Origin: Patescibacteria group bacterium
GTDB taxonomy: Bacteria > Patescibacteriota > Patescibacteriia > UBA9934
Assembly: GCA_049296775.1 (NCBI GenBank)
Contig: JBAQTB010000001.1
Location: 96,992 to 160,991, forward strand
Reading direction: 5' to 3'
Length of the DNA stretch: 64,000 bases
Shown: in pieces, positions 688-63,208 of the stretch
How the letters are laid out: the number at the start of each line of letters is the position of its first letter
Numbering within the stretch: position 1 is the stretch's first letter
Position numbers and translations under genes: made by a program
Notes under the pieces: generated by a model
Database searches by the model: none
What the model was told of the DNA's origin: nothing
Seen by the model: the letters and a program-made list of their open reading frames with translations, nothing else

Positions 688-692
688 AAGGC

Positions 693-6245: not shown

Positions 6246-6270
6246 AATTAAACTGATTATAACACGCGCC

Positions 6271-6308: not shown

Positions 6309-6334
6309 ACGAGTAAGCGGAGTGGCGTTTTTGC

Positions 6335-8053: not shown

Positions 8054-8665
8054 GTCTACTCCTCTAGGAAGGTTATCGGAATGATCAATCTTCCCTGCTC
8101 AAGGGGGAATGCAACTGGCTCAAGCAGAGAGGATCGAGGCGAGCTCAGAATGTTCGACTCCCCAGCCAAACATTCTGAGCGTCTGTAACGGTGAGTGAAG
8201 TGACCAAGAAATCGTTTGCTTGCAGGCGCTCTCTAACAAGAGAGTTCAGCTATGCAGGCTCACGAACTTCGCAGTTATCTACCCACTCACATGACTCGGT
8301 GGCCACCGATGAACACTGAAGTTCTGCTCCTATAACACCTTGATTTGCCCAAGGCCTCAAGCCGAAAAGCGGCCTAAACACCAAAAAGCCGTCGGCATAA
8401 ACCGACATAATTGAATAAACTCAGTTTTATGGCCATTATTCGCTAAGTTCTAGCTGTCGGCGTTTTCCGGCTGACCTACGTGGACAAAAGCCCGTTGGTT
8501 TGACTTTTAGCCAAAAATATGCTACTCTCCAAATATATCGGAGAGGAGACCGATTGTAGTTTCACAATCTTTTTAAGCACGCCTTTGCGTGCTTTAGTTC
8601 TCACTGTCAGATTTTCTGGCAGTCCACGTCACAAACATACGGCCAAGTGGCCGTGAGGAGTCATC

Positions 8666-9376
8666 ATGTTCAAGACCTTCCGGGCCCTCGCGGCCCTCGC
8701 CCTGATTGCCTGCACCGGAAACGGCGTCGGCAACGACGATACCAGCACCGACAGCGGCACCGGCACGGTCACCACGGCCGAAACCGGCAAGCTGCTGATC
8801 CACGCCACCTACAACGGCGGCGCGGAGGAATGCCAGGCCAACTTGCCAAACGGCGAGTTCCTGGGAGACACGGAGACCGAGATCGAAGGGCTCAAGCCCG
8901 GCGATCTCCAATTCACTCTCGGCGACCCCGACAAGCGAAGCCTGTCTGGCGAGCCATTCCACATCGCCAACAACGGCGACTACGTGACCGGTAGCGGCAA
9001 CGCCACCGTCACGATCGGCAAAACGGTCGAGGCGAGCGTCGAAATGACGCTGTACCCGCAGCACCACTGCGTGTCGTACGAGTGTGGCTACCCGTACGCT
9101 GGCCAGGCAGCCTGCAGCGACACGGTGTCATACGCTCACGACGTCTGGATCTCCATCGATGCAGAAGGAAAATTCCAGAATTCAAACGGGGACAGCACCT
9201 ACGGCAGTGTCGGTGGCATCACGCCAGAACTCGACATCGACGAATTTGCAGTGTCCGTACTGGACGGCGACAGCGAAATCGTCGAAGCTAGCTTCAGCCA
9301 AGACACACTCGCCTTCGAGTTCGTGCTCATCGCCCATGCCTTTCAGGCTTCAGCCTTCACAAAGTGTGAGCTGTAG
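8666..9376 (+). CDS. Lipoprotein, hypothetical, GC-rich
   Basis: Signal peptide with lipobox ALIAC|TGNG. Very GC-rich codon usage (GCC/GGC/ACC). Followed by a terminator. Confidence 0.6.
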   Translation: MFKTFRALAALALIACTGNGVGNDDTSTDSGTGTVTTAETGKLLIHATYNGGAEECQANLPNGEFLGDTETEIEGLKPGDLQFTLGDPDKRSLSGEPFHIANNGDYVTGSGNATVTIGKTVEASVEMTLYPQHHCVSYECGYPYAGQAACSDTVSYAHDVWISIDAEGKFQNSNGDSTYGSVGGITPELDIDEFAVSVLDGDSEIVEASFSQDTLAFEFVLIAHAFQASAFTKCEL

Positions 9377-9406
9377 CGCTGGCCTACAAACCGCTAGCGG
9401 TTTCAC

Positions 9407-12500: not shown

Positions 12501-15500
12501 ATTCGCCAGCAACTAATGCCAAGCGGTAATCCTCAGCATCATCAACTACGCAGTAATTAGCGAACGTGCCACCAATACCACAGTCGTACGCGCTGGTCTC
12601 TTGCTCACACGGGTAGCCGTGCTTGTTTTGATAATGATCCTCCGTAATCAGGCCGCTGGCATACGCGTCACTCAAATCACATGATCCTGGTGGCGGAGAC
12701 ACGTTCGCTTGTTCCAAAGTTTGCACGGGGAAAATGTCAGGAATAGCGTAACCAGAATATTCCTGTCCGTACCAAGACACGTCTCTAGAGGTATACACGC
12801 CTGCATCTAAAATAACTTCAGACGCATCCTCTTTCCAGGCTGAACAGAAAGTACTGCCACCAGAAGAGGAGTATTTAGTACACAACTGAATATCGGTACA
12901 CACAGTCTTCCAGCTATTCGTCCGCTGATCCCAGCTAGCCATGTCCTCAGCACAACTCAACCACTCAGAACACTGGCGATCACGGTTAACTTTGAGAACG
13001 GTATTGGTGTCATTCTCTAATCTTGGTACGGCCACGGCCTGAGCTCCACCCGGCGCCGCAGGTGAAGTCGCCCTAGCCCTGGTATTACAGTCAAAGGCGG
13101 CAATTTCGTCACCGGACTGGCTGCGCATGGTGCCACAATCTGACACGTCGTAGCAGGAGGTACCGGTTAAGTAGAGATCGTCATAATTCTTAGGAACTCC
13201 CAAACCACCAAGTGACAGTTTAATGTTTCTTGGCACTCCGTCTGCAATATCCCGCACCATGCCTTTGTCATAGAGACAACGCTGTGCACACAGATCAACC
13301 TGAGTGCCATCCGCCAAAGTCAGCCTAGAATTACCGCCTTCACAATCAATCGGCTCAACCAAGGCAAACGGCTGCGTGCCTAGCAAAACATCAGCATGCG
13401 TACTTAAGACCTCTGAAGCACTGGCATTATATTTTTGAGCTGGCTCAGAAGTGTCGTTAAACAGGACGCAACCTTCCTTGAGAGAAGCTCTGCCGTCACA
13501 ACGCTGACTGTCTGGCAAGACATTCTCGTCCAAATTATCGTTATTCAAGTAGAAATACTGCTTACCAGAAGACAGCTGATAACGTTCATCCGTTTCCAAG
13601 TCCAATGGATCCTGGAATTCAGAACAAGAGTTGTAATTACTTGGACACTCGCCTACCCAACCGCCGTACTGGTCATCACCATTGCGCCATACACCGGACA
13701 ACGTGCCACCAATCACATAAGAAGGATCCGTGGTGTTACAGCTACCAGCGCCACATTGCGCATCTGAAGAACAAGACGTCACGCCGTCAGTACACGTGCC
13801 GTAACAGAACTCATCTGTACCCGCCCTGAACCAACCGTCATATTCTGCGCCGTTGATCAAAACATCAGTCCGGTAGCCACAAGTTTGGTTGACTGGGTCT
13901 TTAAAGAAGAAAGTGCCATCATCTTGAGTATCCCACGCCGCACAGAACAGTTCACCGGCATTACACAAAGTCTGAGCGTATTGATCGGGGTCGTTCATTA
14001 AGAATACTGATTCAGCGGCAAGAGTGCTATTTCTGTCCTGGCTCCATTCTGGTTTACCTACCTCTGTACAACCAGCGTATGCAGAACTACACGTCACACT
14101 CTCATCTACCACCAAGAACACATCACTATCCGCTGGAACAACTACGGTCTCTGGTCCGTAAGTAATGTGAGATGGCAAGATATTAGGATTTTGGTACCAG
14201 TCAATATCAAAGTTACACGCCGTTTGGCCAACGCCAATGGTACACAGATACTGACTAGTGAGGTCAAAACCACCAGCTCCGTCACGCTTGTAGTAGCAAG
14301 AAGCTGGAGAGGTCACTGCTGCCCCACCCGGGTTACTACACGTAGCTTGATACACCTCAGCAAAAGGTGATGAGCTCTCATGGGTCATGAAGAAATCTTC
14401 ACAACCAACTTTATCGCTAGAACACAAACTGCTGAATGATTTTAAGTAAGCAATCTGATTGTCTTGAGTGTTGTATTCCTGACAACCCAGGTAATACTGC
14501 GGAGAAGCTGCGCCTGTAGGAGCCTGATCACAAGCCGCTGGAGTCACCCAAGAATCTTTAATGAGGGTAATGTCGTCCTCACCTTCACGTAACGTAATGT
14601 TGTCAATGTAAGCTAAACTAGTTGGGTCAAAAACTAACGTAGTCGCTGGGCCAAAGTTTGCGTAACCCTCTCTAGTCATGTTGAGTGGCCCCAAACTGAA
14701 CTGCTGCCAACCGCTGGTTAGTTTGACCGTGCCAAAGGCGACATCAGCCACTGACGATCCTGGCACAGCGGCAAGGTCAAAAGCGGCCGTCAGATCCCCC
14801 GTACCTTTAGCCCAGAAAGACAAAGTGTAAGTCTTGCCCTGGAAAAGTTGATTTTCCAAGGTGCCACAGTAAGTATTGCCCTCAATGACTACACAGTTGC
14901 CGCCAAAACTCTGAGCTGTACCGCTACAACCACCCGGCGTGGCACAAACAGAGCCATTATCAAAGATAAAGGTTGAGAATTGGTTCGTAGCTGCAATCGA
15001 ATGACCACCCGTGGCCAGAGATTCATTACTCAAAGTCACGTCTGCAGCACTAGCGGCGTCCCAATTGTTCAAATCGCCGCCCTCCAACGTGTCTTCAAAG
15101 GCAATACGGCTGTTTCTACTTCTACCACCTGTGTATGACCTACAACCGTTAGCTGAATCTGGACACTCCACACTCTCCTCGCTGTAACCGTTGTAGCGAC
15201 AGGTTCCAGTTAGGTCATCAAAATACCCACCGGAGTTTTGACAGTTAGCAGCTTGCGCAAAAGCATCCGTACCCACCAGTTCGGTTTTGCGGTAAGCGCT
15301 ACATGCAGCGTTCACAGACACGGTCTTGGACCACAATCTGTAATGAATTCCACCGCTCGTGTCATAGAACTCTCGGCAGTCTGGGTTAGAGAAAATATCC
15401 TCATGTTCATTACAAGCAGCCGTATCCCAATCCTTCTTAAGATCGCCGTCACTATCTAGCTCATCAGAACATACGATCCCGTCAGCGGTAGCGCTCCAGA

Positions 15501-18500
15501 CTGAACACGGTGCCAAACTTGGGGTGCTATCGATTCCGCCCGCCATATAAGTGTACGGGGTGCTGGCCATGTTTGATTCCAACAAACTCCAAGTTTTTAG
15601 CTGGTAACCCTCCAAATCAGAGCCTTCCCACGTGTAGAAAGTGGCCTGATTATCCCCGTTGGTATTGATAGCGGCCTGAGTTGGGGTGACGCAGGCTCGG
15701 AGATAAGTGTAGTACTCCAAAGCCTCCGTGCTCAAGTTAGTAAACTCATCACAGCCCACGTATTCCTGTGAACAAGACTCACCCGTGGTCGGAATGAAGT
15801 AAACCGGGAAAGTGCCAGCTGGCTCATACAAAGTTGCCTCTTGCTTGAAAGTATCGTAACCGACACAAATAGCTGGACAGGCGTCTAACTCTGACGCCAC
15901 ACCGGTGACAGTTGGATCACCGTTAGTTGGCGTGTAAGCCGTACAGCCAACTTCATTCTCACTACACACCTGCGCATAATTAGCACACTCAGCTGGATCA
16001 GCAGCGTTACCCTGACAACCCAAGTAACTTGGTGGCACCTTCACACTGACGCTGCTCAACTGACTAGTTGAGTAGCCTTCATGATAATCAGTCGCACCCT
16101 CACCCTGCTCTAACTGAATATCGTCAAAGAAAACGTTGCCGGACAAGGTCAAAGTTGCCATGACCGTGGCGGCTGGATCACGCAAAATTGGTGACGTGAA
16201 GGTACAAGCAAAGCTCTCATACTCGGTACCAGTTGGCGTACCGCTCGTCTCAAAAACATCCGCTAAGCCGTTACCATTAGTGACATTGCCACTGTTGGCG
16301 ATTACACAAGTAGTGTTGGCATCAGCAAAGAAGCTCGTGCCGTTCAGGTTAATATCATTCCCAGTTTCAAGGGCTAGAAACTCCAAAGCCAAGGTACCGG
16401 TGGAATTACTACCGACTCCTTTAATCTCTGTCTTTTGGCGGGCGTAAAACGAAACCGTGTAAAAACGTCCCTGAGCCAGGGCGATACCTGGCTGAATCAG
16501 TTCGCCGTTCAAACTTGGATCAATAGCATCAGAACCTGATCGGGCTGAATTGTCAGAATTAACTGCCGCACCAACTCCACCGCGCTGCCAAGCGTCAGGC
16601 ACGGTGTCATTGTTCTGATCATCTTCAAAAGACGAGTTCTGCACTACGTTTAAACTAATCCCCGGGTTACGGGCATACAACTCAGCACAGCCACCATTTT
16701 CAGCCGAACAATCCTCTACCGCGCTAGTAAAGTAAATGCGGGAAGTGTAAGCATCCGGCGCAGCATCTGCTACAGCCACATCTGCCACGGGCTGCCAATC
16801 ATAAGTGCCGTCACCCTCTGGATCCGCCTTAACGGTGTCGTACCACAAACAACCAGCGTTATCCGCAGTACAGCCCGCAAAGTCGACAGTATTTTGCAAG
16901 TAAGACGCGGTCTTATCTTCTCCCTCAAACGTCAGACAAGAAGCGTATTCAGCTGGACAAGACTCCCCTCTAAAGCGCCAGGTATTTTCTTCTTGCACAC
17001 AGTAACCGTAACCACCGGTACAGGTACCGTCATCATTTTCTGCAATACAGCTAGGCATGTCTACACACTCGTTTTGACGCTCAGCAATATCTGAGGCCAC
17101 TAATAGCTGCCCGCTCACCAAGGCTTTACACTGAGTTTCTGGGTATTTAATTACCCAATTTGGGTCAATGAGCTTACACCACGGATGCGTAGCATCAATT
17201 TCACCGGCCGTATTACAGTCATCAAAACCGTCCACTACCTCCTGCAAAGTCACGGCATCTGTCACGGAGTTGTATTGCGATTCAGCCGCCAACTCCCAAC
17301 CAATCGAGATAATTCTAGCCTTGCGCAATTTCACCAAGTTAGTCTGACAAAAACCGTAGGTATAGCAGAAAGGGTCCTGGTTTCTAGCCAAATCTGCAGC
17401 TGGAATAAGCGGCCAACTGCCGCTAATCAAATTCTGCTCCAAGGCTTCTGCCACGGTTAACGGTGCCCCAGCCTCCGCCCGACCGACAGCAGAGATAAAG
17501 GAATTATTCGCGACACAGTTATATAAACCTCTTGGCACTCCAGAAGGACAAGAGCCGAATTCACTCAAGATGCTGTAATTAGAAATTTCCAACGGCGCCA
17601 CAGTGATAAGTGACCTGAACTGATCTCTAGCCGTGTCTGAATTACTCCTAGCAATGGAATCCAAGCTAGCAAAAGGGTCGCTAATCTCGCTATCAATCTT
17701 AAAGAGGCCCTCACCAAGTTTTTTAGTTAAACTAGACAACAAAGTATTCGTAAAGACAGAGCCTGCGTGGATACCCACTTGGAGCAAAGCGCGCTCTGAC
17801 TGCATCAACGCCAAGGTAGTTTCTGTCCTAACCGTACCTGGTCCTTCTAGGTCCACAAGGAGTTTATGCTCTATAAGTGAGGCTGGGGTTTCGATCTGAC
17901 CGGTAATAAAGTCTGTGACAGACTGCGTACCGCCATCTTTAATATGCACCTGGGCCCTCAAAAATGACTCCTGCAGAGCATTATTCAAAATGCTAGACTG
18001 CAACTCAATACCCACCGCAAATTCACTTTGATCTGGCTCAAAAGCGTTAGCTAGCTGAGCTAGAACCAACTTATTTTTGTTATCTGCAGTCCCTTCATCC
18101 TGAATATCTGCCAAAAAACCATTCCAATTACTACTAATAGCTTTAAAATCACACTTAGGCACCGGACGCTCAAAGGCGGCCTTCACACCCAAACTAAGCG
18201 CGATAGTGATATCTGCCCTGGGTTGACAGAGGTTGAAACCGGAAAAAATCGCACCCAAAGCACCACCACCAGCCTCCAAATTATCTTGCAATAAACCCAG
18301 AGACTCACCCGCCACCGCCGCCCCATATTCCTTAAAGTAACGCTCAATTGGCGTGCCATCATACAGCGGCGTCTCCGCTGGACCACCCGAAGCCACCATC
18401 ACCGCCGTATCATACGCCAATCTATCCGCTGCAAACGTCATTAAATTGATCAAATACACCATGATCGTACCAGCCAAACTATCCTTGATCTTTTCACCAG

Positions 18501-18669
18501 CGCTATTAATGCCCGCCCAGGCTTCAAAAGCTGGATAAGTGGTAATGGCAGTTGCAGGAGCCTGAGCACTAGCGAAGCGGGGGGATGAAGCACTAAAGAA
18601 AACTATACCAACCAGCAAGAGTGGCAATAGTTTGCGAGCTGAGTTCTTCAACCTGAACATGTAGCGCAT
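9520..18669 (-). CDS. Giant secreted cysteine-rich surface protein (3049 aa) with two CBM4_9-like carbohydrate-binding jelly-roll modules and a C-terminal PKD-like module
   Basis: Signal peptide MRYMFRLKNSARKLLPLLLVGIVFFSASSPRFASAQA. Hundreds of Cys in CxxxxC / GxC repeats, for example GSCIAGSCQVQTGTLCATDSNCAADQICSGSQC. CBM4_9-like signatures GRFYTVSFYARQK and GKTYTLSFWAKGTG sit in roughly 200-aa modules. The PKD-like signature VVIDWGDG...YSHTYTC is near the C-terminus. No LPxTG sorting signal. Confidence 0.75.
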   Translation of the reverse strand: MRYMFRLKNSARKLLPLLLVGIVFFSASSPRFASAQAPATAITTYPAFEAWAGINSAGEKIKDSLAGTIMVYLINLMTFAADRLAYDTAVMVASGGPAETPLYDGTPIERYFKEYGAAVAGESLGLLQDNLEAGGGALGAIFSGFNLCQPRADITIALSLGVKAAFERPVPKCDFKAISSNWNGFLADIQDEGTADNKNKLVLAQLANAFEPDQSEFAVGIELQSSILNNALQESFLRAQVHIKDGGTQSVTDFITGQIETPASLIEHKLLVDLEGPGTVRTETTLALMQSERALLQVGIHAGSVFTNTLLSSLTKKLGEGLFKIDSEISDPFASLDSIARSNSDTARDQFRSLITVAPLEISNYSILSEFGSCPSGVPRGLYNCVANNSFISAVGRAEAGAPLTVAEALEQNLISGSWPLIPAADLARNQDPFCYTYGFCQTNLVKLRKARIISIGWELAAESQYNSVTDAVTLQEVVDGFDDCNTAGEIDATHPWCKLIDPNWVIKYPETQCKALVSGQLLVASDIAERQNECVDMPSCIAENDDGTCTGGYGYCVQEENTWRFRGESCPAEYASCLTFEGEDKTASYLQNTVDFAGCTADNAGCLWYDTVKADPEGDGTYDWQPVADVAVADAAPDAYTSRIYFTSAVEDCSAENGGCAELYARNPGISLNVVQNSSFEDDQNNDTVPDAWQRGGVGAAVNSDNSARSGSDAIDPSLNGELIQPGIALAQGRFYTVSFYARQKTEIKGVGSNSTGTLALEFLALETGNDINLNGTSFFADANTTCVIANSGNVTNGNGLADVFETSGTPTGTEYESFACTFTSPILRDPAATVMATLTLSGNVFFDDIQLEQGEGATDYHEGYSTSQLSSVSVKVPPSYLGCQGNAADPAECANYAQVCSENEVGCTAYTPTNGDPTVTGVASELDACPAICVGYDTFKQEATLYEPAGTFPVYFIPTTGESCSQEYVGCDEFTNLSTEALEYYTYLRACVTPTQAAINTNGDNQATFYTWEGSDLEGYQLKTWSLLESNMASTPYTYMAGGIDSTPSLAPCSVWSATADGIVCSDELDSDGDLKKDWDTAACNEHEDIFSNPDCREFYDTSGGIHYRLWSKTVSVNAACSAYRKTELVGTDAFAQAANCQNSGGYFDDLTGTCRYNGYSEESVECPDSANGCRSYTGGRSRNSRIAFEDTLEGGDLNNWDAASAADVTLSNESLATGGHSIAATNQFSTFIFDNGSVCATPGGCSGTAQSFGGNCVVIEGNTYCGTLENQLFQGKTYTLSFWAKGTGDLTAAFDLAAVPGSSVADVAFGTVKLTSGWQQFSLGPLNMTREGYANFGPATTLVFDPTSLAYIDNITLREGEDDITLIKDSWVTPAACDQAPTGAASPQYYLGCQEYNTQDNQIAYLKSFSSLCSSDKVGCEDFFMTHESSSPFAEVYQATCSNPGGAAVTSPASCYYKRDGAGGFDLTSQYLCTIGVGQTACNFDIDWYQNPNILPSHITYGPETVVVPADSDVFLVVDESVTCSSAYAGCTEVGKPEWSQDRNSTLAAESVFLMNDPDQYAQTLCNAGELFCAAWDTQDDGTFFFKDPVNQTCGYRTDVLINGAEYDGWFRAGTDEFCYGTCTDGVTSCSSDAQCGAGSCNTTDPSYVIGGTLSGVWRNGDDQYGGWVGECPSNYNSCSEFQDPLDLETDERYQLSSGKQYFYLNNDNLDENVLPDSQRCDGRASLKEGCVLFNDTSEPAQKYNASASEVLSTHADVLLGTQPFALVEPIDCEGGNSRLTLADGTQVDLCAQRCLYDKGMVRDIADGVPRNIKLSLGGLGVPKNYDDLYLTGTSCYDVSDCGTMRSQSGDEIAAFDCNTRARATSPAAPGGAQAVAVPRLENDTNTVLKVNRDRQCSEWLSCAEDMASWDQRTNSWKTVCTDIQLCTKYSSSGGSTFCSAWKEDASEVILDAGVYTSRDVSWYGQEYSGYAIPDIFPVQTLEQANVSPPPGSCDLSDAYASGLITEDHYQNKHGYPCEQETSAYDCGIGGTFANYCVVDDAEDYRLALVAGECSGSYGSSCSVGYCQNTGSACASTTDCGLSGGSCIAGSCQVQTGTLCATDSNCAADQICSGSQCVSQGGKVTIETFNAFGSNPNGACAAGQVFVANTALKVGSCVRDQCILTPDGKTFNVALSEGKVCRAQPESDAPFSFELVERWADPDNNGAPLPAGEGFTQVEFPKDDVPYQIRAGFQEVNLCAPGEDCQCSYRKLTYGEGAQIRYWDVESAVTSGSGLCTTGKVNAACQDDAECNTATDSEDGTCSMITREDTLLGLEGYCLERDTGVNINGDRSEGACLTWLPVDQLAGSTDLYAKFTEAGYFEDTFACSYVSPMANLKMSGYSKLGAPYSSGDIACAESGQEGIADDEAYSFDIAQECAANAQCPEGYWALLGMPSYKEQGNDGTMSQACATTGAGNDCPFVCIPKDAVSLEGESCNSDSAYVAGLIQDIEGDLEALSGQILNFTFKYNLANDAEIMGMAMAKGIDDANALFHYISFDLLVEALSDCTLKGVEVNEAVDAAVFDTPEGGGFVVVNGIEVPTDVYRDLYMKAEFYAACKEVTRVSDGGTKVDYAWTDRLLGPDKETSFPGIVADPTLDFVYGTNPGPYGFVSIDPSTLEDEWPLVVAACEETAAKSMVHPGGPAPYNNCAYLGGTNYSAGGGSGDTGVSVIPSNELLTRINPATADARSFIGFAQLHANRTEISNWGVSGFFDDVFGSINQLFAGVSLPGIVDNQFSWNSEDKTWPDNERKYDEGDIENFKVDESVFDVRAEQGNPPKVMSILNGSCVGTLCEEGSENALTLNDQNSGNVEGEDFLRAYLKFYAAADKNQLPIRRVVIDWGDGIESRLDGFQGSDSTDNFYRNHRGIDGATDTSICDQGDEWGETPESCDPNYFSYSHTYTCSSQITSDTAKACQYKNGVATNSPCWIPGEGDTKSCVFQPAVHIRDNWGWCTGTCTADGDPGCYEGDAYNTLSNATILQSECSYNRAIAPGGPVDPWVYYQGTVIVN

Positions 18670-49357: not shown

Positions 49358-49435
49358 GTGGTAGGCCTGCTTGGAATCGAACCAAGGACCACCGAGGTAT
49401 AAGCTCGGCGCTCTAACCAACTGAGCTACAGGCCC
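49358..49435 (-). tRNA. tRNA-Ile (anticodon TAT, decoding AUA), CCA encoded
   Basis: GGGCCTGTAGCTCAGTTGGTTAGAGCGCCGAGCTTATACCTCGGTGGTCCTTGGTTCGATTCCAAGCAGGCCTACCA. The anticodon loop is CTTATAC. Confidence 0.7.
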
Positions 49436-54764: not shown

Positions 54765-56591
54765 GTGACAGATATTATGGGAAATTTTAAACCTAGTGCC
54801 CCGCGTACTGAGCGTCCGCGACCGGCCGCTCGCCCTACTAAGCCACCGTTCAGATCCACGCCTCGCCCAGTTGTAACCACAGACAGTGCTAAGACCACAA
54901 CTTACACCACTCCAAATGGCGAAGTAGTGCGCGTCATCGTACTTGGCGGCCTGGAAGAAGTTGGACGCAACTGTACCCTGATTGAATACAAGAACGACAT
55001 CATCTTTGTAGACATGGGTCTGCAGTTTCCAGATGATCAGATGCCTGGCGTAGATTACATTATTCCAAACATGTCCTACCTCAAGGGCAAGGAACAGAAT
55101 GTGCGTGGTGTAATTATCACCCACGGCCACTACGACCACATCGGTGCCATTCCTCACGTCATGGACAGCATTGGCAATGCCACCATTTACGCCCTGCCAA
55201 TTGCAGCTGGCATCATCAAGAAGCGTCAAACCGATTTTCCAGAATCTAAAGTAAATGTTAAGACGATTGCAATTGATACCGAACTGCAATTAGGTGTCTT
55301 TAAAGTTCACTTCTTCCATATCAATCACAACATTCCTGACTCAGCCGGAATTGTAATTGAGACTCCCGCTGGAACTATTTGTCATACCGGTGACTGGAAA
55401 TTTGATTATCACCCCGTGGGTACGGTACCGGCTGACTTTCACAAAATTGCCCGCGTGGGCATGAACGGCGTCACGCTCCTCATGGGTGACTCTACCAATG
55501 CCGACCGCGCTGGTCACCAAAAATCAGAAAAAGGTATCGGAGAAGAGCTCCAGGGAATTATTGAAAAAGCTAAAGGCCGCGTCATCATCGGTACCTTTGC
55601 TTCCCTACTCTCCCGCGTCAAGCAGATCATGGAGATCTCAGAAGCGTGCGGACGTAAAATCGCCCTGGATGGCTACTCCATGAAAACTAACGTGGAGATC
55701 GCTAAAGAATTGGGCTACATCAAGGTTGCACAAACTTCGATCATTCCGATTGATGACGTTAACGATTACCCCCCAGAAAAAATCACGATCATTTGTACCG
55801 GAGCACAAGGTGAAAAACGCGCCGCAATGGCCAAGATCGCGAATGATGAACATAGATTCATTAAGGTCGACCCTACAGATACGATCATCTTTTCTAGCTC
55901 GGTTATTCCCGGCAATGAGGCCACAGTGCAACGTTTGAAAGACACGCTGTACCGCAAACGCGCCAAGGTCATCCACAAAGATATTATGGATGTTCATGCT
56001 GGTGGCCACGCCATGAAAGAAGATATTAAACTCATGTTGTCCTTGTTTAAACCCAAGTACTACATGCCAATTGAGGGCAACCACTTCCTGCTCCGCGAAA
56101 ATGCTGAGGTGGCCTACGCCATGAATGTGCCAGAACAAAATGTGTTCGTGGCCGACAATGGGCAGATTATCGAACTTTGGAAAGATGCCAAAGGTGTGTC
56201 TCAAGCTAAAATGACGGCTGAAAAAGTCCCTACGGATTACGTTTTCATTGACGGCCTAGGCGTGGGCGATGTCTCACAAATCGTGCTCCGTGACCGACAA
56301 GCTTTAGCGGAAGACGGCATGGTAGTTGTGATTGCGCAATTTGATCGCAAGACCGGCAATCTAGTCTCGACTCCAGACATTGTTAGTCGTGGTTTTGTGC
56401 AGATGAAAGACAACAAAGACTTCATCCAAGACACCAGGTTGCACTTAGATAAGATCTTGAGAGCTAAAAACTCAACTACGGCCATTGACCCAGATCTCGT
56501 CAAAAATACCGTCAGAGATGAGCTCGGTAAGTATTTGTTCCAGAAAACTGAACGCCGGCCCATGATCTTGCCAGTCTTAATCGAAGTCTAG
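54765..56591 (+). CDS. rnj: Ribonuclease J (metallo-beta-lactamase/beta-CASP)
   Basis: VIVLGGLEEVGRNCTLIEY, the ITHGHYDHIGAIP (HxHxDH) motif, and beta-CASP plus C-terminal domains. Confidence 0.85.
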   Translation: MTDIMGNFKPSAPRTERPRPAARPTKPPFRSTPRPVVTTDSAKTTTYTTPNGEVVRVIVLGGLEEVGRNCTLIEYKNDIIFVDMGLQFPDDQMPGVDYIIPNMSYLKGKEQNVRGVIITHGHYDHIGAIPHVMDSIGNATIYALPIAAGIIKKRQTDFPESKVNVKTIAIDTELQLGVFKVHFFHINHNIPDSAGIVIETPAGTICHTGDWKFDYHPVGTVPADFHKIARVGMNGVTLLMGDSTNADRAGHQKSEKGIGEELQGIIEKAKGRVIIGTFASLLSRVKQIMEISEACGRKIALDGYSMKTNVEIAKELGYIKVAQTSIIPIDDVNDYPPEKITIICTGAQGEKRAAMAKIANDEHRFIKVDPTDTIIFSSSVIPGNEATVQRLKDTLYRKRAKVIHKDIMDVHAGGHAMKEDIKLMLSLFKPKYYMPIEGNHFLLRENAEVAYAMNVPEQNVFVADNGQIIELWKDAKGVSQAKMTAEKVPTDYVFIDGLGVGDVSQIVLRDRQALAEDGMVVVIAQFDRKTGNLVSTPDIVSRGFVQMKDNKDFIQDTRLHLDKILRAKNSTTAIDPDLVKNTVRDELGKYLFQKTERRPMILPVLIEV

Positions 56592-56643: not shown

Positions 56644-57642
56644 ATGCTAGCATTGGGACATATGCGTATCCTTACCGGCATCCAACCAACCAACATTTTG
56701 CACCTGGGAAACTATTTTGGGGCCTTAAAGCCAGCCATAGAACTCCAACGTGAAGACGACCTGTTCATGATGATCGTGGACTTACACGCCATTACCGTGC
56801 CGCAAGAGCCCGCGCAACTCAAGCAAAATATCGCCTTTGCAACGGCGGCGTATTTAGCGGCTGGCATTGACCCAAAACGAGCGACGCTATTTCAGCAATC
56901 CCGCGTACCGGCCCATGCTGAACTGGGTTGGTTACTCCAAACCGTCGCCCGCATGGGAGAATTGGAGCGCATGACGCAATTTAAAGACAAGGCTAAAGCC
57001 AAAGGACAAAATGTCTCGGTGGGCTTGTTCACCTACCCGGTTTTAATGGCCGCCGATATTTTACTTTACGATACTCAAGCCGTACCAGTAGGCGAAGATC
57101 AGAAACAACACCTAGAACTAGCCAGAGATTTAGCTGAACGTTTTAATCGCGACTTTGGTGAAACTTTTGTCATCCCCAACCCTATCATCAACATTGCTAG
57201 TGGACGTATTTTAGCTTTAGACAATCCAAGTATCAAAATGAGCAAGAGTGCCGCCTCAGCTAAAAACTACATCTCCCTCATGGACAGCGCGGATGAGATC
57301 AGTAAGAAAATCAAATCAGCCGTTACTGATTCCGAAGCTGGGATCAGCGTAGATGAAGGCCGACCTGGACTCAGGAATTTGCTCTCGATCTTCAGCTTAG
57401 TGACAGATAGCTCCATGGAGGAGTTAGCTAGCAATTACGCTAGCAAAGGCATGAAAGCGCTCAAAGAAGATCTGGCGAGTGCCCTAGTGGCGCACCTAGA
57501 ACCGCTGCAAGCCAAGATCAACGACTACTTAAGTGAACCGGAAGAACTAGAAAAGATCGTGGCGGCGGGCAGTCAGCATGCCGCCAAGGTGGCCAATCTC
57601 AAAATTGCTGAAGTGAAGCGTAAAATGGGTTTAAGCTTATAA
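56644..57642 (+). CDS. trpS: Tryptophan--tRNA ligase
   Basis: ILTGIQPTNILHLGNY (HIGH-like) and KMSKSAAS. Confidence 0.9.
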   Translation: MLALGHMRILTGIQPTNILHLGNYFGALKPAIELQREDDLFMMIVDLHAITVPQEPAQLKQNIAFATAAYLAAGIDPKRATLFQQSRVPAHAELGWLLQTVARMGELERMTQFKDKAKAKGQNVSVGLFTYPVLMAADILLYDTQAVPVGEDQKQHLELARDLAERFNRDFGETFVIPNPIINIASGRILALDNPSIKMSKSAASAKNYISLMDSADEISKKIKSAVTDSEAGISVDEGRPGLRNLLSIFSLVTDSSMEELASNYASKGMKALKEDLASALVAHLEPLQAKINDYLSEPEELEKIVAAGSQHAAKVANLKIAEVKRKMGLSL

Positions 57643-57713
57643 TTAGCCAAAATTTCAAGTTTAATCTTGAGCATATACTTTGCTAATCTTAGCCTCAAAA
57701 AGGCTAATTTGGC

Positions 57714-57742
57714 TTGACAAAAAGCCAAAAAAATGCTATCTT
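57714..57742 (+). promoter_or_regulatory. Sigma70-like promoter TTGACA-17-TATCTT in front of a GC-rich cassette
   Basis: Seen in the sequence. Preceded by a trpS terminator-like hairpin, TAGCCTcaaaaAGGCTA at about 57689-57710. Confidence 0.45.
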
Positions 57743-57779
57743 ATCCAAGGTAATTTTCTTTTACAACAGAAGGTGGCAC

Positions 57780-57881
57780 ATGGAACTTTTCGCACTGGGT
57801 GCAATCACGCTCATCTTGAATATCTCGATGGCGACTGGGGTCTTCCTAGTCATCATTAAATACACTGATTCGGATGGGTGA
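57780..57881 (+). CDS. 33-aa hydrophobic small protein (MELFALGAITLILNISMATGVFLVIIKYTDSDG), translationally coupled to the next ORF
   Basis: RBS AGAAGGTGG lies 6 nt upstream. One predicted TM helix. The stop overlaps the next start codon (ATGGGTGA). Confidence 0.4.
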   Translation: MELFALGAITLILNISMATGVFLVIIKYTDSDG

Positions 57882-58212
57882 GATGCCCCTTAACCCCCTG
57901 CGGCAGGCTCACGACCTGCAACTAGGCAATGTGAGACGGTTAGAAAACCTTGTTAACAAGGTTAGGTGCCCAAAACATAAAGCGCGTGTAATGCGTCGAC
58001 TGCAGCGTGCCGAGAGAAAGCTCGACGAGCTCTGGCTGCGCTTAGACGAGTTTATCTCGACACTGAACGCAGAAAGAGAAGAGCGCCGGAAACAGGTCAG
58101 CACAATTGCCTACCTTGGACCGGAACATGCTCGTCGGTCCAAAAACGAGCCACCTGCACGGAGCCTGGCGCATAGGTTTGCGCTCAGTCCTGAAGAACGG
58201 CGCTGGATCTAG
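57874..58212 (+). CDS. Hypothetical basic coiled-coil protein of 112 aa, GC-rich
   Basis: ORF with Arg/Glu-rich heptad-like sequence RRLQRAERKLDELWLRLDEF. Confidence 0.35.
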   Translation: MGEMPLNPLRQAHDLQLGNVRRLENLVNKVRCPKHKARVMRRLQRAERKLDELWLRLDEFISTLNAEREERRKQVSTIAYLGPEHARRSKNEPPARSLAHRFALSPEERRWI

Positions 58213-58252
58213 CAACCCAATCCTCACCCCCCCAATTACCCCCGGAGTCCCC

Positions 58253-58462
58253 ATGTTCGCCCACCACTCCCCCGTTGAAATCCGCGTGCTCCTGAAAATG
58301 ATTGTCGTGTCCGGCCTGGTCGGATTCGGCGCATCGAGACTGGCACGCTACTGTGCCCTGCCCATGAACTGGGTGGATTGCCTGGCCGTGATCATGCTGA
58401 CAATCGGCGTCGCGATGGTGGCTACGTCCGCCGTCCTGACCTGGCAAAGGTCGGCCGATTAG
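58253..58462 (+). CDS. Small 2-TM membrane protein, hypothetical. The start is trimmed to MFAHHSP.
   Basis: Hydrophobic helices IVVSGLVGFGASRL and LAVIMLTIGVAMVATSAVL. Confidence 0.3.
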   Translation: MFAHHSPVEIRVLLKMIVVSGLVGFGASRLARYCALPMNWVDCLAVIMLTIGVAMVATSAVLTWQRSAD

Positions 58463-58496
58463 ACCCGCTGCGGATAGTGCCTCAAACGCTATCCGC

Positions 58497-58551
58497 CAAT
58501 ACTCCCTGACATCAAGTTTTAACGCTTGAAGGCAGGGAGTATTGCTTTTTT
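58497..58551 (+). terminator. Rho-independent terminator
   Basis: 12-bp stem CAATACTCCCTG / CAGGGAGTATTG followed by CTTTTTTT. Confidence 0.6.
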
Positions 58552-58619
58552 ACCGAAAGTTAGCTAATCTCCCGTCACTAACGAACTCATTCGTTAGCCA
58601 ATCCAGTCCAGGAGGACTA

Positions 58620-59165
58620 TTGAGCCCCAGCGCCGCAGCCACCCAAAAGGTCCAAAACAACGGGCGCGAGCCCCGCACGTACGGGCTGAAAAAGCCTGTG
58701 GTGCGTCGGAAGAAGCCCAACCGGCTCCAACGACTGATCGAAGACCTTGAGAAAATGATCAAGACCAGAAGCAGTGTTCCGCTCGCCATCAACTACGCGG
58801 TACTCCTCGCTGTGGCGAAAATGCGCCAACAACGCGGGTTCAAGCGCGGCAGGCGCACCGAACTCGCAGACGCACTCAAGGAGCTCCTCATCCAAGTCAG
58901 GGAAGACAAGACGACGATGCTCGGGCCCGACGCGGTGTTCAGCCTGATCACCCCCGAGGTGTGTCAGCGCGACCGCGACACGATGCAGATCGTCGCGGGC
59001 CACTTCCTGGCGAACGTTTGGCCCAACGGTGCCAAGCGCAAGCTCATGAAGCAGGCCATCGGCGAAATGAAAAATGATCTACGAGAAGGGACGGACGACA
59101 AAGTCCAGAACATCGCGACGAGCACGATTTTCGGACGGCTGAGCAAGATCCTGCTCGCCGCCTGA
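58620..59165 (+). CDS. Hypothetical basic protein. A TTG start at 58620 with an AGGAGG RBS is preferred, because the longer ORF from 58542 begins inside the terminator.
   Basis: An 8-bp inverted repeat CTAACGAA-N5-TTCGTTAG (58578-58598) lies just upstream. GC-rich. Confidence 0.35.
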   Translation: MSPSAAATQKVQNNGREPRTYGLKKPVVRRKKPNRLQRLIEDLEKMIKTRSSVPLAINYAVLLAVAKMRQQRGFKRGRRTELADALKELLIQVREDKTTMLGPDAVFSLITPEVCQRDRDTMQIVAGHFLANVWPNGAKRKLMKQAIGEMKNDLREGTDDKVQNIATSTIFGRLSKILLAA

Positions 59166-59184
59166 CAGCGCCAGTGCTCGACTG

Positions 59185-59236
59185 CCCCGCCCACGTCATC
59201 ACCTAAACGGTGAGAATGTGAGGCGGGGTCTTTTTA
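59185..59236 (+). terminator. Rho-independent terminator
   Basis: Stem CCCCGCC ... GGCGGGG followed by TCTTTTTATT. Confidence 0.55.
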
Positions 59237-59247
59237 TTCTAAGACAA

Positions 59248-59277
59248 TTGACAATAAGCAAAGGCTGCGATTATACT
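59248..59277 (+). promoter_or_regulatory. Sigma70-like promoter TTGACA-18-TATACT
   Basis: Seen directly in the sequence, upstream of the ORF at 59347-60000. Confidence 0.5.
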
Positions 59278-59346
59278 TTTTTAGCGTATTTTCGCCTTCT
59301 TCGTCCAAGCGAAGATGAACAATAACCTCAGACCAGGCTACAGTAA

Positions 59347-60000
59347 ATGCTTCCCGAGTCCCCCGCCCTCTCCCTCACGGAACAGGCCGAACAAGCAACC
59401 GCCCGCAACGTCATGCTCGCCGCTCTCAAGGAGGCGGTCAGCGACCACGAGATTGACGAAAGGGCCTTCAAGGCCGCCGCCCTGCCACTCGAATGGTGCC
59501 GTGAGCAGCTGCTACAGGCAGCTGTCCGGCTCGTCCGCAAGCCCTGGGAAATCGAAGAGTTACAACTCATCATCAAGGTGTTTGACGGTCCAGTTGTCTG
59601 GACAAAAGTGTGCCGATTGTTCGGCAACATCGCCCACCGCAACGTTACCGTTCTGACTGCGTTCCAAGGCTTTGTCGCAACCATCGTGCCAGATGATCTG
59701 CGCAAACACTATGCCCACGGGTTGCAGATGCTAGAGGACTCAAGCCCTGCATCACGCGAAGCAATCCAGGTACTGCTGGCAATCGTAGAAGCCTACCCGG
59801 AATATCCTGTCATCCCCAGCATCATGTGTACGATCAACTCTGACGGTATGACCGCTGCAGAGCTGATGGATGTGGTCGGCGATGATGAAGAGCTGTGCCA
59901 AAAAATGGTGCCGGCTCTTGAACAGTTGAAGATGAGTACCTTCTGTCCACCGCGACAGTACGCTCCAGAGCAAAACCAAGAAGCCACTAGCGGACGCTGA
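59347..60000 (+). CDS. Hypothetical protein of 217 aa, GC-rich
   Basis: ORF with no recognisable motif, followed by a terminator. Confidence 0.35.
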   Translation: MLPESPALSLTEQAEQATARNVMLAALKEAVSDHEIDERAFKAAALPLEWCREQLLQAAVRLVRKPWEIEELQLIIKVFDGPVVWTKVCRLFGNIAHRNVTVLTAFQGFVATIVPDDLRKHYAHGLQMLEDSSPASREAIQVLLAIVEAYPEYPVIPSIMCTINSDGMTAAELMDVVGDDEELCQKMVPALEQLKMSTFCPPRQYAPEQNQEATSGR

Positions 60001-60022
60001 GTCAGACTCAGGCGCCGCTCGT

Positions 60023-60068
60023 AGGGCCCATTCTGCCAAACTTGGCTAAGAATGGGCCCTTTCTCTTT
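60023..60068 (+). terminator. Rho-independent terminator
   Basis: AGGGCCCATTC ... GAATGGGCCCT followed by TTCTCTTT. Confidence 0.6.
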
Positions 60069-60094
60069 ACAAAAGCCTGTATTTTTGCTATACT
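60066..60094 (+). promoter_or_regulatory. Near-consensus sigma70 promoter TTTACA-17-TATACT for rnpB
   Basis: The -10 ends 7 nt before the predicted 5' end of the RNase P RNA P1 helix. Confidence 0.6.
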
Positions 60095-60100
60095 TGACCC

Positions 60101-60620
60101 GCAGGAATACCAGATGATCGCTCCCCCTTCGCTCCTAACGGAGTTACGGCGGGAGAGGAAAGTCCGAACACCCCTCTAGCGGCAACGCTGGAGTGAGCAA
60201 AGCGTCGCTAACGGCGACCGGGAGTAAATACGAATGTGAGGGACTGGGTGACTCACCATGAGTTGTCCCCCAGGTTCGTGTGAAGCCCAGGGAAAGTCCA
60301 TCAATGACTAAAGAAATTGGTGGGTCATGGCTAGTCCGAAAGAACTAGTCAGACGCAACAGAGACATTCTCGCTACCTAACCCGCAAGGCACGGTAGTCA
60401 AAGGTGAAACGTGATGGGACTTAAAACGCAAGTTTTAGGGAGCCATCTCACGCATGCGGTGACGCATGGGTGCGGCAAACCCGCTTTGGTGCAAGAACAT
60501 ATTTGGTAGTTCGCCTGATCCGTTTAGCAATAAACGGACAAGAGAGATGATCGTCATGTAGAGCTTGAGGCATGGTGTCCAAGCGCTACAACAGAATTCG
60601 GCTTATAAGTATTACCTGCC
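60101..60620 (+). ncRNA. rnpB: RNase P RNA (bacterial)
   Basis: The universally conserved P4 strand GGGAGAGGAAAGTCCGAAC near the 5' end and the 3' box ACAGAATTCGGCTTA. P1 pairing GCAGGAATAC (60101-60110) with GTATTACCTGC (60609-60619). A terminator follows. Confidence 0.85.
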
Positions 60621-60626
60621 ATAACT

Positions 60627-60650
60627 CCGCCCGCAAGGGCGGTTTTATGT
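60627..60650 (+). terminator. Rho-independent terminator of rnpB
   Basis: CCGCCC gcaa GGGCGG followed by TTTTAT. Confidence 0.6.
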
Positions 60651-60664
60651 TAGAATGCGACCAT

Positions 60665-62086
60665 ATGAAACGTGCTAATTTGGTCTTTGCGGCCATTCTT
60701 GTTCCCCTGGATTATCTCGCCCTACTCGCAGCGGCCATGACGGCATATTCCCTACGCTTCATGCCGTTTTTTGTAAACTTAAAACCGATTCAATTCGCCC
60801 TTGATCTCAACACTTATCTGCAGAGCGCCTTGCCACTCGGCCTGGTGTATCTCAGTGTGTTTGCGTTTGCTGGGCTATATTCCATCAGACCAAGAAGTAT
60901 TGCGGAAGAGTTTTCCCGAATTGTTCTAGGCTGTACCACCGCCTTAGCCATTGTGCTCATTATTGCCTTCTTCTCTAGAGCTTTATTTGAGTCACGGTTT
61001 ATTATTTTAGCTGTCCTAACACTCACAATCCTGTTTGTACTAATCGCCAGAATGACGATTAGAGCACTCCAAAGAACTTTGCGCTTATACGGAATCGGCA
61101 CCGTGCAATTAGCTGTGATCGGCAAAACTAAAAGTGGCAATGCACTTGTGGAGTGGTTTAAGCGTTTCCCTGGCTTTGGCTACAACACCAACCTGCACGT
61201 CTCGCATTTTTCAGAAGAAGCGGCCCGCAAAATGCTCCAGTTAAAAAAGCGGGATGAAGTCGATGGTATTTTACTCGCCAATCCAGACGCTACTAAAGAT
61301 GAAATTACGGACATTAAAACTTTCGCCGACATCAATCACCTCACCTTCTTTTACTCAGCCGATCTCTTCCCCGGCAGCACCCTTAGGCCACTAGTGCACA
61401 CGTTAGCAGGCCGACCGCTCATTGAAGTACCAACTACCCCACTTGATGGCTGGGGCGCAATTTACAAACGGATCTTTGATATTCTCGGCGCTTTGCTCCT
61501 GATTATTTTTACACTCCCAATTCAAATCGTGGTGGTAATCGCCTTATTCCTAGAACAACCCGGAGATGTTTTTTTCCGCAAACTCCCAAACGGTACCAAT
61601 TCCCTCAGAGTTGGTCAGGGCAACAGACCCTTCCATTACTTTAAATTCCGGTCGATGGTTAAGGACGCTCACAAATACCGTTTTGATCCAAAATTCATCC
61701 AAGAGCACGGCAACATGCGTGAAGGCACCCCGCTGTTCAAGCTTGAAAATGACCCTAGAGTCACACCGGTCGGACGTTTTATCAGAAAATACAGTTTAGA
61801 CGAATTACCTGAGTTTTATTTGGTGCTGTGGGGTAAAATGAGCCTAGTCGGTCCCCGCCCCCATTTACCAGAAGAGGTCGCCGAATATAAGCCAGAACAG
61901 CGAAAAGCCCTAACAATCAAGCCTGGAATTACGGGATTGTCACAAATTAGCGGACGGGCTAATCTTGACTTTGATGACGAAGTCCGCCTAGATATGTACT
62001 ATATTGAGAATTGGAGTCCTTGGAGGGACCTGATTATTCTCCTAAAAACCCCCGCGGCCGTAATCTTCCGCAAAGGGGCCTACTAA
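60665..62086 (+). CDS. Polyprenyl-phosphate sugar phosphotransferase (Bac_transf; WbaP/WcaJ-like initiating glycosyltransferase). The start is uncertain, with ATG 60647 and ATG 60665 both possible.
   Basis: N-terminal TM helices plus the C-terminal catalytic block KRIFDILGALLLII...RVGQGNRPFHYFKFRSM...DELPEFYLVLWGKMSLVGPRP. Confidence 0.85.
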   Translation: MKRANLVFAAILVPLDYLALLAAAMTAYSLRFMPFFVNLKPIQFALDLNTYLQSALPLGLVYLSVFAFAGLYSIRPRSIAEEFSRIVLGCTTALAIVLIIAFFSRALFESRFIILAVLTLTILFVLIARMTIRALQRTLRLYGIGTVQLAVIGKTKSGNALVEWFKRFPGFGYNTNLHVSHFSEEAARKMLQLKKRDEVDGILLANPDATKDEITDIKTFADINHLTFFYSADLFPGSTLRPLVHTLAGRPLIEVPTTPLDGWGAIYKRIFDILGALLLIIFTLPIQIVVVIALFLEQPGDVFFRKLPNGTNSLRVGQGNRPFHYFKFRSMVKDAHKYRFDPKFIQEHGNMREGTPLFKLENDPRVTPVGRFIRKYSLDELPEFYLVLWGKMSLVGPRPHLPEEVAEYKPEQRKALTIKPGITGLSQISGRANLDFDDEVRLDMYYIENWSPWRDLIILLKTPAAVIFRKGAY

Positions 62087-63208
62087 GTGTGTATGCGTAT
62101 AGCCCTCATTCATGACCATCTGACCCAGTACGGGGGCGCTGAAAGAGTTCTGGAGGCAATTCAGGCTATTTGGCCAGAAGCGCCCACTTATACGTTGCAC
62201 CATGATCCCACCAGTCTAGGACCAGCGTTTGCGCATAAAGACATCCGCACGTCTTTCCTGAGTAAGTTTCCACTAGCTAAACGGGCTTTCCGCTGGTTTT
62301 TGCCGTTAATGCCCATGGCCACCGAAAGTTACGATCTATCGGACTTTGACGTGGTCATTTCTAACTCCAGCGCTTTCTCAAAAGGTATCATCACCGCTCC
62401 CCACGCCATTCATATTTGCTATTGTCACACCCCCACACGCTACTTGTGGTCTGACTCTGAAAGTTACGTAGCTGAACTCAAGGCACCCAAAATTGCAAAA
62501 GTTATTCTGCCATTTGTCCTACATAAATTACGGGGCTGGGATCAGCTGGCTGCGCAACGCGTGGATACTTTTGTAGCCAATTCAGAAACCGTGCAACGCC
62601 GCATCACCAAGTATTATCGCAGGGACAGTCAGGTGATTTATCCGCCAGTCGATGTTGAAAAGTTTAGTCTTAGCGACGCACCTAAAACTTACTTCCTAAC
62701 CGGTGGCCGCCTGGTGGCTTACAAACGTTTTGATTTGGTCGTTGATGCTTTCACTAAACTCGGCAAGCCGTTAAAGATCTTTGGAGCTGGACCGGAAGAA
62801 GCTAATTTGAGGAAGCGCGCCGGCAGTAACATTGAGTTTGTGGGTAAAGTTTCTGATGATGAACGGGCCAGACTCTTTTCTGGAGCGATCGCGTTTATCA
62901 ATCCTCAAGAAGAAGATTTTGGTATTACGCCTGTAGAATCCATGGCCGCTGGCCGACCGGTGATCGCCTACCGTAAGGGTGGAGCGCTAGAAACCGTGAT
63001 TGACGGCGTGACTGGCATCTTCTTTGATGAACAAAGTTGGGAAGAATTAGCAGATGTCATTTTGCGTTTCAAAGAACACGAGTTTGAACCAAGCAAGATC
63101 AGAGCCCACGCCGAACAGTTCTCTACCAAGATCTTTAGACACAACATTCATACCCTAGTGAACAAAGCGTGGCGTGAACACGAACGCAAAATTCTTGGGA
63201 GTATCTAG
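62087..63208 (+). CDS. Glycosyltransferase family 4 (GT-B, Glycos_transf_1)
   Basis: C-terminal EDFGITPVESMAAGRPVIAYRKGGALETVIDGVTGIFF is the GT4 EX7E region. Confidence 0.8.
   Translation: MCMRIALIHDHLTQYGGAERVLEAIQAIWPEAPTYTLHHDPTSLGPAFAHKDIRTSFLSKFPLAKRAFRWFLPLMPMATESYDLSDFDVVISNSSAFSKGIITAPHAIHICYCHTPTRYLWSDSESYVAELKAPKIAKVILPFVLHKLRGWDQLAAQRVDTFVANSETVQRRITKYYRRDSQVIYPPVDVEKFSLSDAPKTYFLTGGRLVAYKRFDLVVDAFTKLGKPLKIFGAGPEEANLRKRAGSNIEFVGKVSDDERARLFSGAIAFINPQEEDFGITPVESMAAGRPVIAYRKGGALETVIDGVTGIFFDEQSWEELADVILRFKEHEFEPSKIRAHAEQFSTKIFRHNIHTLVNKAWREHERKILGSI

Follow-up and report, generated by a model that had tools for sequence, protein, structure and literature searches.

Additive flexible genomic islands, or integration hotspots at stable-RNA genes, have been defined for Alteromonas (PMC4898812), and prophage morons are recognized by hallmarks such as a promoter and a terminator of their own and a deviant GC content (PMC3594210). 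Here, we describe a locus that resembles both in part, a GC-rich cassette encoding four small protein families (A–D) between trpS and the RNase P RNA gene rnpB in a 64,000-nucleotide stretch of a Patescibacteria genome (contig JBAQTB010000001.1); this whole stretch is called the window in the following. The locus is a variable genomic islet with orphan genes, and its unusual traits are a linked set of genes that co-diverges with the core at a hyper-fast rate and a persistent excess of GC at third codon positions (GC3). On balance, the sequence comparisons suggest that the cassette is a lineage-restricted, vertically inherited and fast-diverging accessory island of four previously undescribed families rather than a recent private acquisition. 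Taken by itself, the evolutionary description, namely a fast-diverging island inherited vertically in a chromosomal slot, appears likely.

The cassette shares with additive islands that one core-gene junction next to a stable RNA gene carries genes varying in number and kind among relatives, with comparatively constant neighbouring junctions. It differs in that the RNA gene is rnpB and not a tRNA or tmRNA gene, and that neither a recombinase open reading frame (ORF) between trpS and rnpB nor att repeats were found (direct repeats spanning the island measure only 10–13 nt, which is chance level). Moreover, divergent genomes do not share near-identical cassettes; within the subclade, the cassettes co-diverge with the core, the opposite of the fast turnover of additive islands (PMC4898812). 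Like prophage morons, the cassette has a deviant composition, consensus promoters (P1 and P2) and terminators (T1–T3), the C unit being closed by a terminator but having no consensus promoter; unlike them, it lies between chromosomal housekeeping genes, and no relatives were found in PHROGs or among phages and viral contigs. Replacement flexible islands with hyper-divergent surface-structure alleles (PMC4898812) offer a third parallel, as the lineages agree in position but have almost unrecognizable sequences there, and as the cassette immediately precedes a polysaccharide-type cluster (Bac_transf, GT4). However, its genes are not glycosylation genes, and the adjoining sugar transferases are conserved at 78–83%. 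ORFan genes are similar in having homologues only in a narrow clade, in being short and helical or partly disordered, and in diverging far faster than their neighbours, but here four families are kept together in order, with strong expression signals and a GC3 excess.

Further known systems were rejected. A known anti-phage defence system was dismissed because none of the families in PADLOC-DB v2 matched any of the five cassette proteins (A–D and the 33-aa peptide pep33) at E ≤ 1, and a type II toxin-antitoxin module because Pfam and NCBIfam gave no such domains and a terminator and a promoter separate C and D. An integron cassette array does not fit the units' own promoters, their 3' hairpins with T-runs and the lack of an adjacent integrase (attC covariance models were not run). 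A diversity-generating retroelement target was rejected as well, as no repeat longer than 24 nt in 57400–60700 and no reverse transcriptase domain was found; the differences between the two nearly identical relatives L083 and L160 are ordinary, scattered substitutions.

Relatives were collected by scanning metagenomes with the sugar transferase encoded downstream (WbaP), which yielded 80 loci with a transferase 50–82% identical to that of the window; a TrpS scan of genome contigs returned only relatives of at most 53% identity from other phyla. The nearest relatives are the loci L083–L086 and L160, with transferases 78–82% identical (L085: trpS 84%, rnj 85%), and the flanking proteins of the closest relatives are 78–85% identical to those of the window. 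BLAST detected no cassette homologues in the nearest relatives at E 1e-3. The sub-threshold similarities are systematic and positionally consistent, and homologues of A, B, C and D were recognized in the closest relatives at the same site, in the same order and with the same unit design, at identities of 16–33%. We compared each window protein with the alignment of its relatives in hhalign against 100 composition-preserving shuffles. The scores of A versus L085/L086 (38.5; shuffles 11.3 ± 2.1), C versus L086/L160 (25.2; 12.2 ± 1.9) and D versus L084/L160/L085 (32.0; 13.6 ± 2.3) lie above all 100 shuffles. A homologue of B directly follows A in L086 (approximately 1650–1838) and shares the motif PMN..D.LA ... 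LTW; its Smith-Waterman score of 57 (shuffles 24 ± 4.8) was attained by 0 of 1000 shuffles.

In the window, trpS is followed by pep33-A-B, C, D and rnpB. L086 carries A-B, C and an unrelated 125-aa gene before rnpB; L085 has trpS, A, D and rnpB; L160 shows C, D, a GIY-YIG gene and rnpB; and in L084 D directly precedes rnpB. In both L085 and L086, the last gene has a TTGACA-17-TATCTT promoter in front of it, and in the relatives A, A-B and C are each closed by a terminator hairpin with a T-run. The 125-aa protein at the D position of L086 has no significant similarity to D, pep33 has no counterpart in L085 or L086, and hmmsearch and hhalign with A–D revealed neither further members among the insert ORFs of more distant relatives nor paralogues among all ORFs of the window. 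The GIY-YIG gene is a stand-alone 90-aa gene of the GIY-YIG/T5orf172 type located directly 5' of rnpB in one sub-lineage (L083:819–1091, L154:67–339, L160:2574–2846), with a host-like GC3 (0.45) unlike that of the adjoining C and D. In L086, a 118-aa ORF without a Pfam match (559–915, plus strand) lies 5' of the A homologue and the available 1 kb contains no trpS, so the island of this lineage is larger.

The cassette proteins appear, from these alignments, to have diverged roughly 7–10 times faster than the proteins of the neighbouring genes. Between the window and L085, all other shared neighbourhood proteins are 69–85% identical, compared with 29% for A and 24% for D. Across lineages, the identity of D falls with that of the transferase: 97.9% versus 99.7% between L083 and L160, 55% versus 93% between L084 and these two, and 20–25% versus 78–83% among the four main lineages. 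Non-synonymous distances show the same relation, with 0.038 for the flank and 0.36 for D in the L084 pair, and 0.13–0.15 and 0.95–1.1, respectively, in the deep pairs. Such scaling with flank divergence is predicted by vertical co-divergence with a 7–10-fold faster protein clock; random replacement from a pool would not be expected to produce it. Between the nearly identical L083 and L160, D shows about 4 non-synonymous and about 9 synonymous differences, so it is under some purifying selection. The ratio of non-synonymous to synonymous substitution rates (dN/dS) was rejected as evidence for positive selection, since its raw value of 0.67 (L084 versus L160) is uninterpretable with synonymous sites that are saturated or constrained by composition. 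Mismatches between L083 and L160, which come from the same aquifer well, are concentrated in D, with 12 in 585 nt against 6 in approximately 1900 nt of neighbouring sequence (12 of 18 in 2.5 kb). Eight of these 12 lie within 70 nt at the 3' end (L083:506–574), a pattern that points to a tract of recombination or to locally elevated diversity.

Outside this subclade, the proteins are orphans. None of the five cassette proteins had a significant match in Pfam, PHROGs, PADLOC or NCBIfam, which bears out the proposal of an earlier note on this DNA that the cassette is a compact accessory module without recognizable motifs. A word-seeded search of 5.8 billion proteins with D, C and the concatenated A and B returned only entries of the query organism itself, and an exhaustive phmmer search with D over 1.84 billion cluster representatives gave D itself and two weak repetitive matches. 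These protein searches found no second, near-identical copy of the cassette in another genomic background. Phage and plasmid collections including INPHARED and PLSDB gave no match in blastn and tblastn, nor did the IMG/VR viral contigs when scanned with the family alignments, the D alignment being too variable for a search pattern. No match resulted from an Rfam E-value scan of the cassette, and the best of the profile searches against the PDB (TraC, a coiled-coil, E 0.014) was judged to be noise.

The foreign-looking composition claimed by the earlier note was borne out. The cassette (57770–60000) has a GC content of 56.0% against 49.3% for the whole window; GC climbs from approximately 0.44–0.50 to 0.53–0.61 between 57800 and 60000, with 400-nt peaks of up to 0.61. 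GC3 amounts to 0.57 for A, 0.80 for B, 0.79 for C and 0.65 for D, compared with 0.519 ± 0.052 over 41 other ORFs of the window, and the GC of pep33 is host-like (46%). The pattern over the three codon positions (sense-frame GC1 > GC2, high GC3) fits coding sequence, and antisense ORFs of 125–128 aa overlap the cassette genes, as expected in GC-rich DNA. A codon bias due to high expression was rejected as the source of the excess, as the ribosomal protein L19 gene (rplS) has a GC3 of 0.48. The shift is strong but not unique, since a second, equally GC-rich stretch (about 57% GC) lies at approximately 5.9–9.4 kb. This stretch (5900–9400) includes a 572-aa ORF with a Peptidase_M23 domain (6335–8053, minus strand; GC3 0.71), the sole window gene outside the cassette with a clearly deviant codon composition; the ORFs near it have no Pfam matches.

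A high GC3 is also found in the relatives, with 0.94 for C of L086, 0.86–0.87 for D of L084 and L160, and 0.76–0.77 for D of L085 and C of L160, so that C and D range from 0.65 to 0.94 across all lineages including the window. Their neighbours show 0.44–0.58 (wbaP and glycosyltransferase) and 0.61 (trpS of L085). Bacterial orphan genes and foreign DNA are more often biased towards AT. Between the lineages, the flanks are saturated at synonymous sites, and by the standard amelioration argument a single ancient acquisition should therefore have ameliorated to the genomic value. Either the GC3 excess is actively kept high, perhaps by selection or by GC-biased conversion that accompanies recombination at a slot prone to it, or fresh copies of the genes arrive repeatedly from a GC-rich pool.

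The trpS–rnpB junction is a clade-wide variable slot, because both its spacing and its insert content vary across related loci. In the 80 loci, rnpB lies directly 5' of the transferase in 72, trpS follows further upstream in 42 and rnj beyond it in 26. Among the 35 non-redundant loci with both trpS and rnpB, which were used for the spacing statistics, the two genes are 39–8112 bp apart (median 1000 bp); the junction is "empty" in 11 (39–203 bp) and spans 627–8112 bp in the other 24. Median spacings at the other junctions are 69 bp between rnpB and the transferase (6% of loci above 500 bp), 65 bp between the transferase and the glycosyltransferase (18%) and 217 bp between rnj and trpS (36%). 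The inserts are mostly GC-richer than their locus (for example 0.549 versus 0.411 in L096), and their ORFs are largely singletons (114/198). Few scattered Pfam domains occur among them (GIY-YIG, PIN, AAA_5/MoxR, kinase, sortase/SpaA and a sigma-70 region), and PADLOC gave just isolated kinase and AAA matches. In addition, L118–L120, L105, L106 and L088 carry approximately 1–1.7 kb of extra DNA between rnpB and the sugar transferase, alone or together with a trpS–rnpB insert; cargo is therefore accepted on both sides of rnpB.

Three autonomous promoter-ORF-terminator units occupy a trpS–rnpB slot of clade-wide variable content, and under our preferred reading the island would be inherited at this site within the subclade that includes the window genome. 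It has retained its foreign-like, GC3-rich codon usage while the proteins diverged, and their fast turnover might reflect weak constraint, antagonistic coevolution with a phage or host cell, or both. The GC3 excess would then be no relic of one old transfer but the result of a process still at work, for example recombination-associated GC-biased conversion or exchange among members of a GC-rich pool. Several points weigh against this reading. Long residence in a genome of about 50% GC is difficult to square with GC3 values that reach 0.94, and their persistence favours repeated import. Presence is mosaic, L085 being without B and C and L086 having the unrelated 125-aa gene in place of D. The homology signals are individually weak (hhalign E 6.9e-6 to 3.6e-3) and rest on two to three relatives per family plus the conserved position, the co-divergence argument draws on only five lineages, and saturation at synonymous sites in all informative pairs precludes a clean dN/dS. 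Finally, the structure models are poor (predicted local distance difference test, pLDDT, of 47 and 57), and the functional role is inferred from sequence.

Some of these observations would be accounted for if the island were repeatedly replaced or exchanged, via a site-specific or homologous-recombination hotspot, from a GC-rich mobile pool, such as a virus, a plasmid or an integrative element of Patescibacteria that has so far escaped sampling and carries A–D as moron-like units, so that the divergence between lineages would reflect old allelic diversity. This explanation, the main rival of our reading but in our view rather unlikely, agrees with the high GC3 of 0.65–0.94 in all lineages despite saturated synonymous sites in the flanks, with the unrelated and mostly GC-richer cargo of the slot across the clade and with the mosaic distribution of A–D among close relatives. 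The concentration of L083/L160 mismatches in D resembles a recombination tract, and units with their own promoter, terminator and deviant GC carry the hallmarks of morons (PMC3594210). However, integrase genes, att-like direct repeats and phage genes were not found in or beside the cassette, IMG/VR, INPHARED and PLSDB gave no matches, a near-identical copy elsewhere is missing from the protein searches, and the identity of D scales with that of the flanks.

The earlier note had viewed the cassette as horizontally acquired and as possibly encoding a defence or toxin-immunity system. The abrupt shift in GC and GC3, the orphan status of the proteins and the 11 relatives with an empty junction would fit a recent private acquisition, and in these loci the expected absence of the cassette from the trpS–rnpB junction holds. 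Its nearest relatives, by contrast, have homologues of the four families, all of them diverged, in the same place, and the divergence of D tracks that of the flanks. The refuting conditions named in the earlier note thus give a mixed outcome, as the genes are conserved in place in these relatives, though without ordinary annotation, and the composition is clearly not uniform. With these comparisons, recent acquisition is largely refuted. Nor did positive evidence for defence or toxin-immunity emerge: PADLOC gave no match for the five proteins even at E = 1, toxin or antitoxin domains were not found in Pfam and NCBIfam, and C and D are separate transcription units rather than a bicistronic pair. 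A recent acquisition with such a role is therefore very improbable. We give even less credence to the idea that the cassette is decaying or non-functional DNA with ORFs as by-products of high GC, for which the overlapping antisense ORFs, the missing database relatives and the poor structure models could be invoked. The sense-frame GC pattern is typical of coding sequence, intact homologous ORFs are kept in five lineages with saturated synonymous sites in the flanks, in the window, L085 and L086 the ORFs lie between consensus promoters and terminators, and change in D between L083 and L160 is mostly synonymous.

What the four families do can be approached from their predicted features. The proteins are all-helical and without invariant residues of catalytic type, the invariant columns in the family alignments being almost all hydrophobic or structural, and for this reason we infer that A–D are small, helical, non-enzymatic binding or scaffold (structural) proteins. 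The single-sequence AlphaFold2 (AF2) models are all-helical but unreliable (pLDDT 47 for D and 57 for C), and Foldseek with the better model found only designed helical repeats at E > 0.5, which is noise. A has a conserved N-terminal MPLxPxR motif, a coiled-coil and a C-terminal SLAHRF. In C, a basic, disordered N-terminus precedes a helical body, and the conserved basic, proline-rich tail carries an invariant N..R..R. B, which has two transmembrane (TM) helices, is co-transcribed with A, and both probably act at the membrane; the promoters are near the sigma-70 consensus. The linkage of four fast-changing families at one site suggests that they work together. Rapid change with kept expression signals might tentatively be read as typical of proteins facing a changing partner, such as a phage or the host cell of an episymbiont. 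Our best guess is that the cassette proteins, including the membrane pair A–B, take part in biotic conflict or host interaction. A more specific version, which is quite doubtful, would see A–D as a dedicated interaction module of this Patescibacteria subclade, aimed at the host cell or at phage and placed in a recombination-active trpS/rnpB slot. If true, recombination would drive the fast diversification of the proteins and, via GC-biased gene conversion, the GC3 excess, and the locus would be a built-in diversification site rather than passive cargo.

The cassette features listed in the earlier note were all found at their places, including the location between trpS and rnpB (Table 1). The cassette forms three transcription units, each closed by a strong hairpin and a T-run. 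A promoter scan yielded 4 sites, among them P1, P2 and the rnpB promoter, against 1.7 ± 1.2 in shuffles; no consensus promoter was found for C, so individual promoters were confirmed for two of the three units. The 112-aa version of A overlaps pep33 by ATGGGTGA, as noted before. This overlap is not needed, however, since A probably starts at M4, where the homologues and the Logan gene call begin. The palindrome 5' of C, CTAACGAA-N4-TTCGTTAG, taken earlier as operator-like, does not exceed chance, as perfect 8-bp inverted repeats (spacer ≤ 10) occur at 0.64 per kb in the window, and it is not conserved 5' of the C homologue of L086. Another perfect inverted repeat, TTTGGCTT-N6-AAGCCAAA, lies across the -35 hexamer of P1 (57708–57729) and was rejected as operator evidence by the same frequency. 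At NCBI, the two largest cassette proteins are present as the identical entries MFZ2681620.1 and MFZ2681619.1 (locus tags WAZ14_00785 and WAZ14_00780), and C and D also occur together on a single Logan contig (SRR28012402).

Table 1 Features of the cassette and its flanks, in window positions.
Feature	Position	Strand	Evidence and remarks
RNase J gene (rnj)	54765–56591		5' of trpS in the local gene order
trpS, left conserved flank	56644–57642	+	Pfam PF00579 recorded for the same gene; relatives 53–84% identical
Hairpin 3' of trpS, terminator-like	57689–57707	+	-13 kcal/mol, followed by TTTGG
Promoter P1, TTGACA-17-TATCTT with TG extension	57714–57742	+	Promoter scan, 10/12 matches
pep33, 33-aa single-TM peptide ORF, uncertain gene	57780–57881	+	GAAGGTGG upstream; gene-called in Logan contig
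Family A	57883–58212	+	109 aa from M4 (probable start); 112 aa from overlapping ATG 57874
Family B, 69 aa, two TM helices	58253–58462	+	GC3 0.80; homologue in L086
Terminator T1, tandem hairpins and T-run	58470–58551	+	20-nt arms; -43 kcal/mol
8-bp palindrome 5' of C	58578–58597	.	Chance level
Family C, 181 aa	58620–59165	+	TTG start 58620, 4 nt after AGGAGG (58610–58615)
Terminator T2	59185–59238	+	-35 kcal/mol, followed by TCTTTTTATT
Promoter P2, TTGACA-18-TATACT	59248–59277	+	Promoter scan, 11/12 matches
Family D, 217 aa, all-helical	59347–60000	+	hhalign versus L084/L160/L085; AF2 pLDDT 47
Terminator T3, 12-bp perfect stem and T-rich tail	60023–60068	+	-29 kcal/mol
rnpB promoter, TTTACA-17-TATACT	60066–60094	+	Promoter scan; conserved in L085 and L086
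rnpB, RNase P RNA class A, right conserved flank	60102–60622	+	Rfam RF00010, 116 bits, model positions 1–367 (full model)
Bac_transf sugar transferase (wbaP)	Listed from 60572; ATG 60647 likelier start		3' of rnpB
GT4 glycosyltransferase	62087–63208		After the sugar transferase

The local gene order is rnj, trpS, cassette, rnpB, Bac_transf sugar transferase and GT4 glycosyltransferase. The listed start of the sugar-transferase ORF would overlap the 3' end of rnpB and the terminator hairpin at 60627–60642; the downstream ATG is more likely, since alignments with relatives begin only at residue 25. With a length of 521 nt against a model of 367 positions, the RNase P RNA scores only 116 bits (gathering score 100); its matched length in relatives ranges from about 344 to 547 nt, and in approximately 15 relative loci rnpB is inverted with respect to trpS and wbaP. 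Elsewhere in the window, we noted a tRNA-Ile gene with the anticodon TAT (UAU; 49359–49435, minus strand), an uncommon way for bacteria to read AUA, and a single ORF of 3049 aa (9520–18669, minus strand).

Patescibacteria have small genomes of mostly conserved housekeeping genes together with a large unannotated fraction, which is thought to hold determinants of their episymbiotic lifestyle. The locus described here provides a well-delimited example of where such unannotated genes sit, namely in a variable slot beside rnpB, which is encountered repeatedly within a broad clade. It combines four linked orphan families, which appear to diverge about ten times as fast as their neighbours, with strong expression signals that are kept, and it poses the puzzle of a high GC3 upheld over long divergence. 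Consequently, the cassette offers candidate genes for expression, interaction and knockout studies, and a natural test case for GC-biased conversion versus repeated transfer in streamlined genomes.

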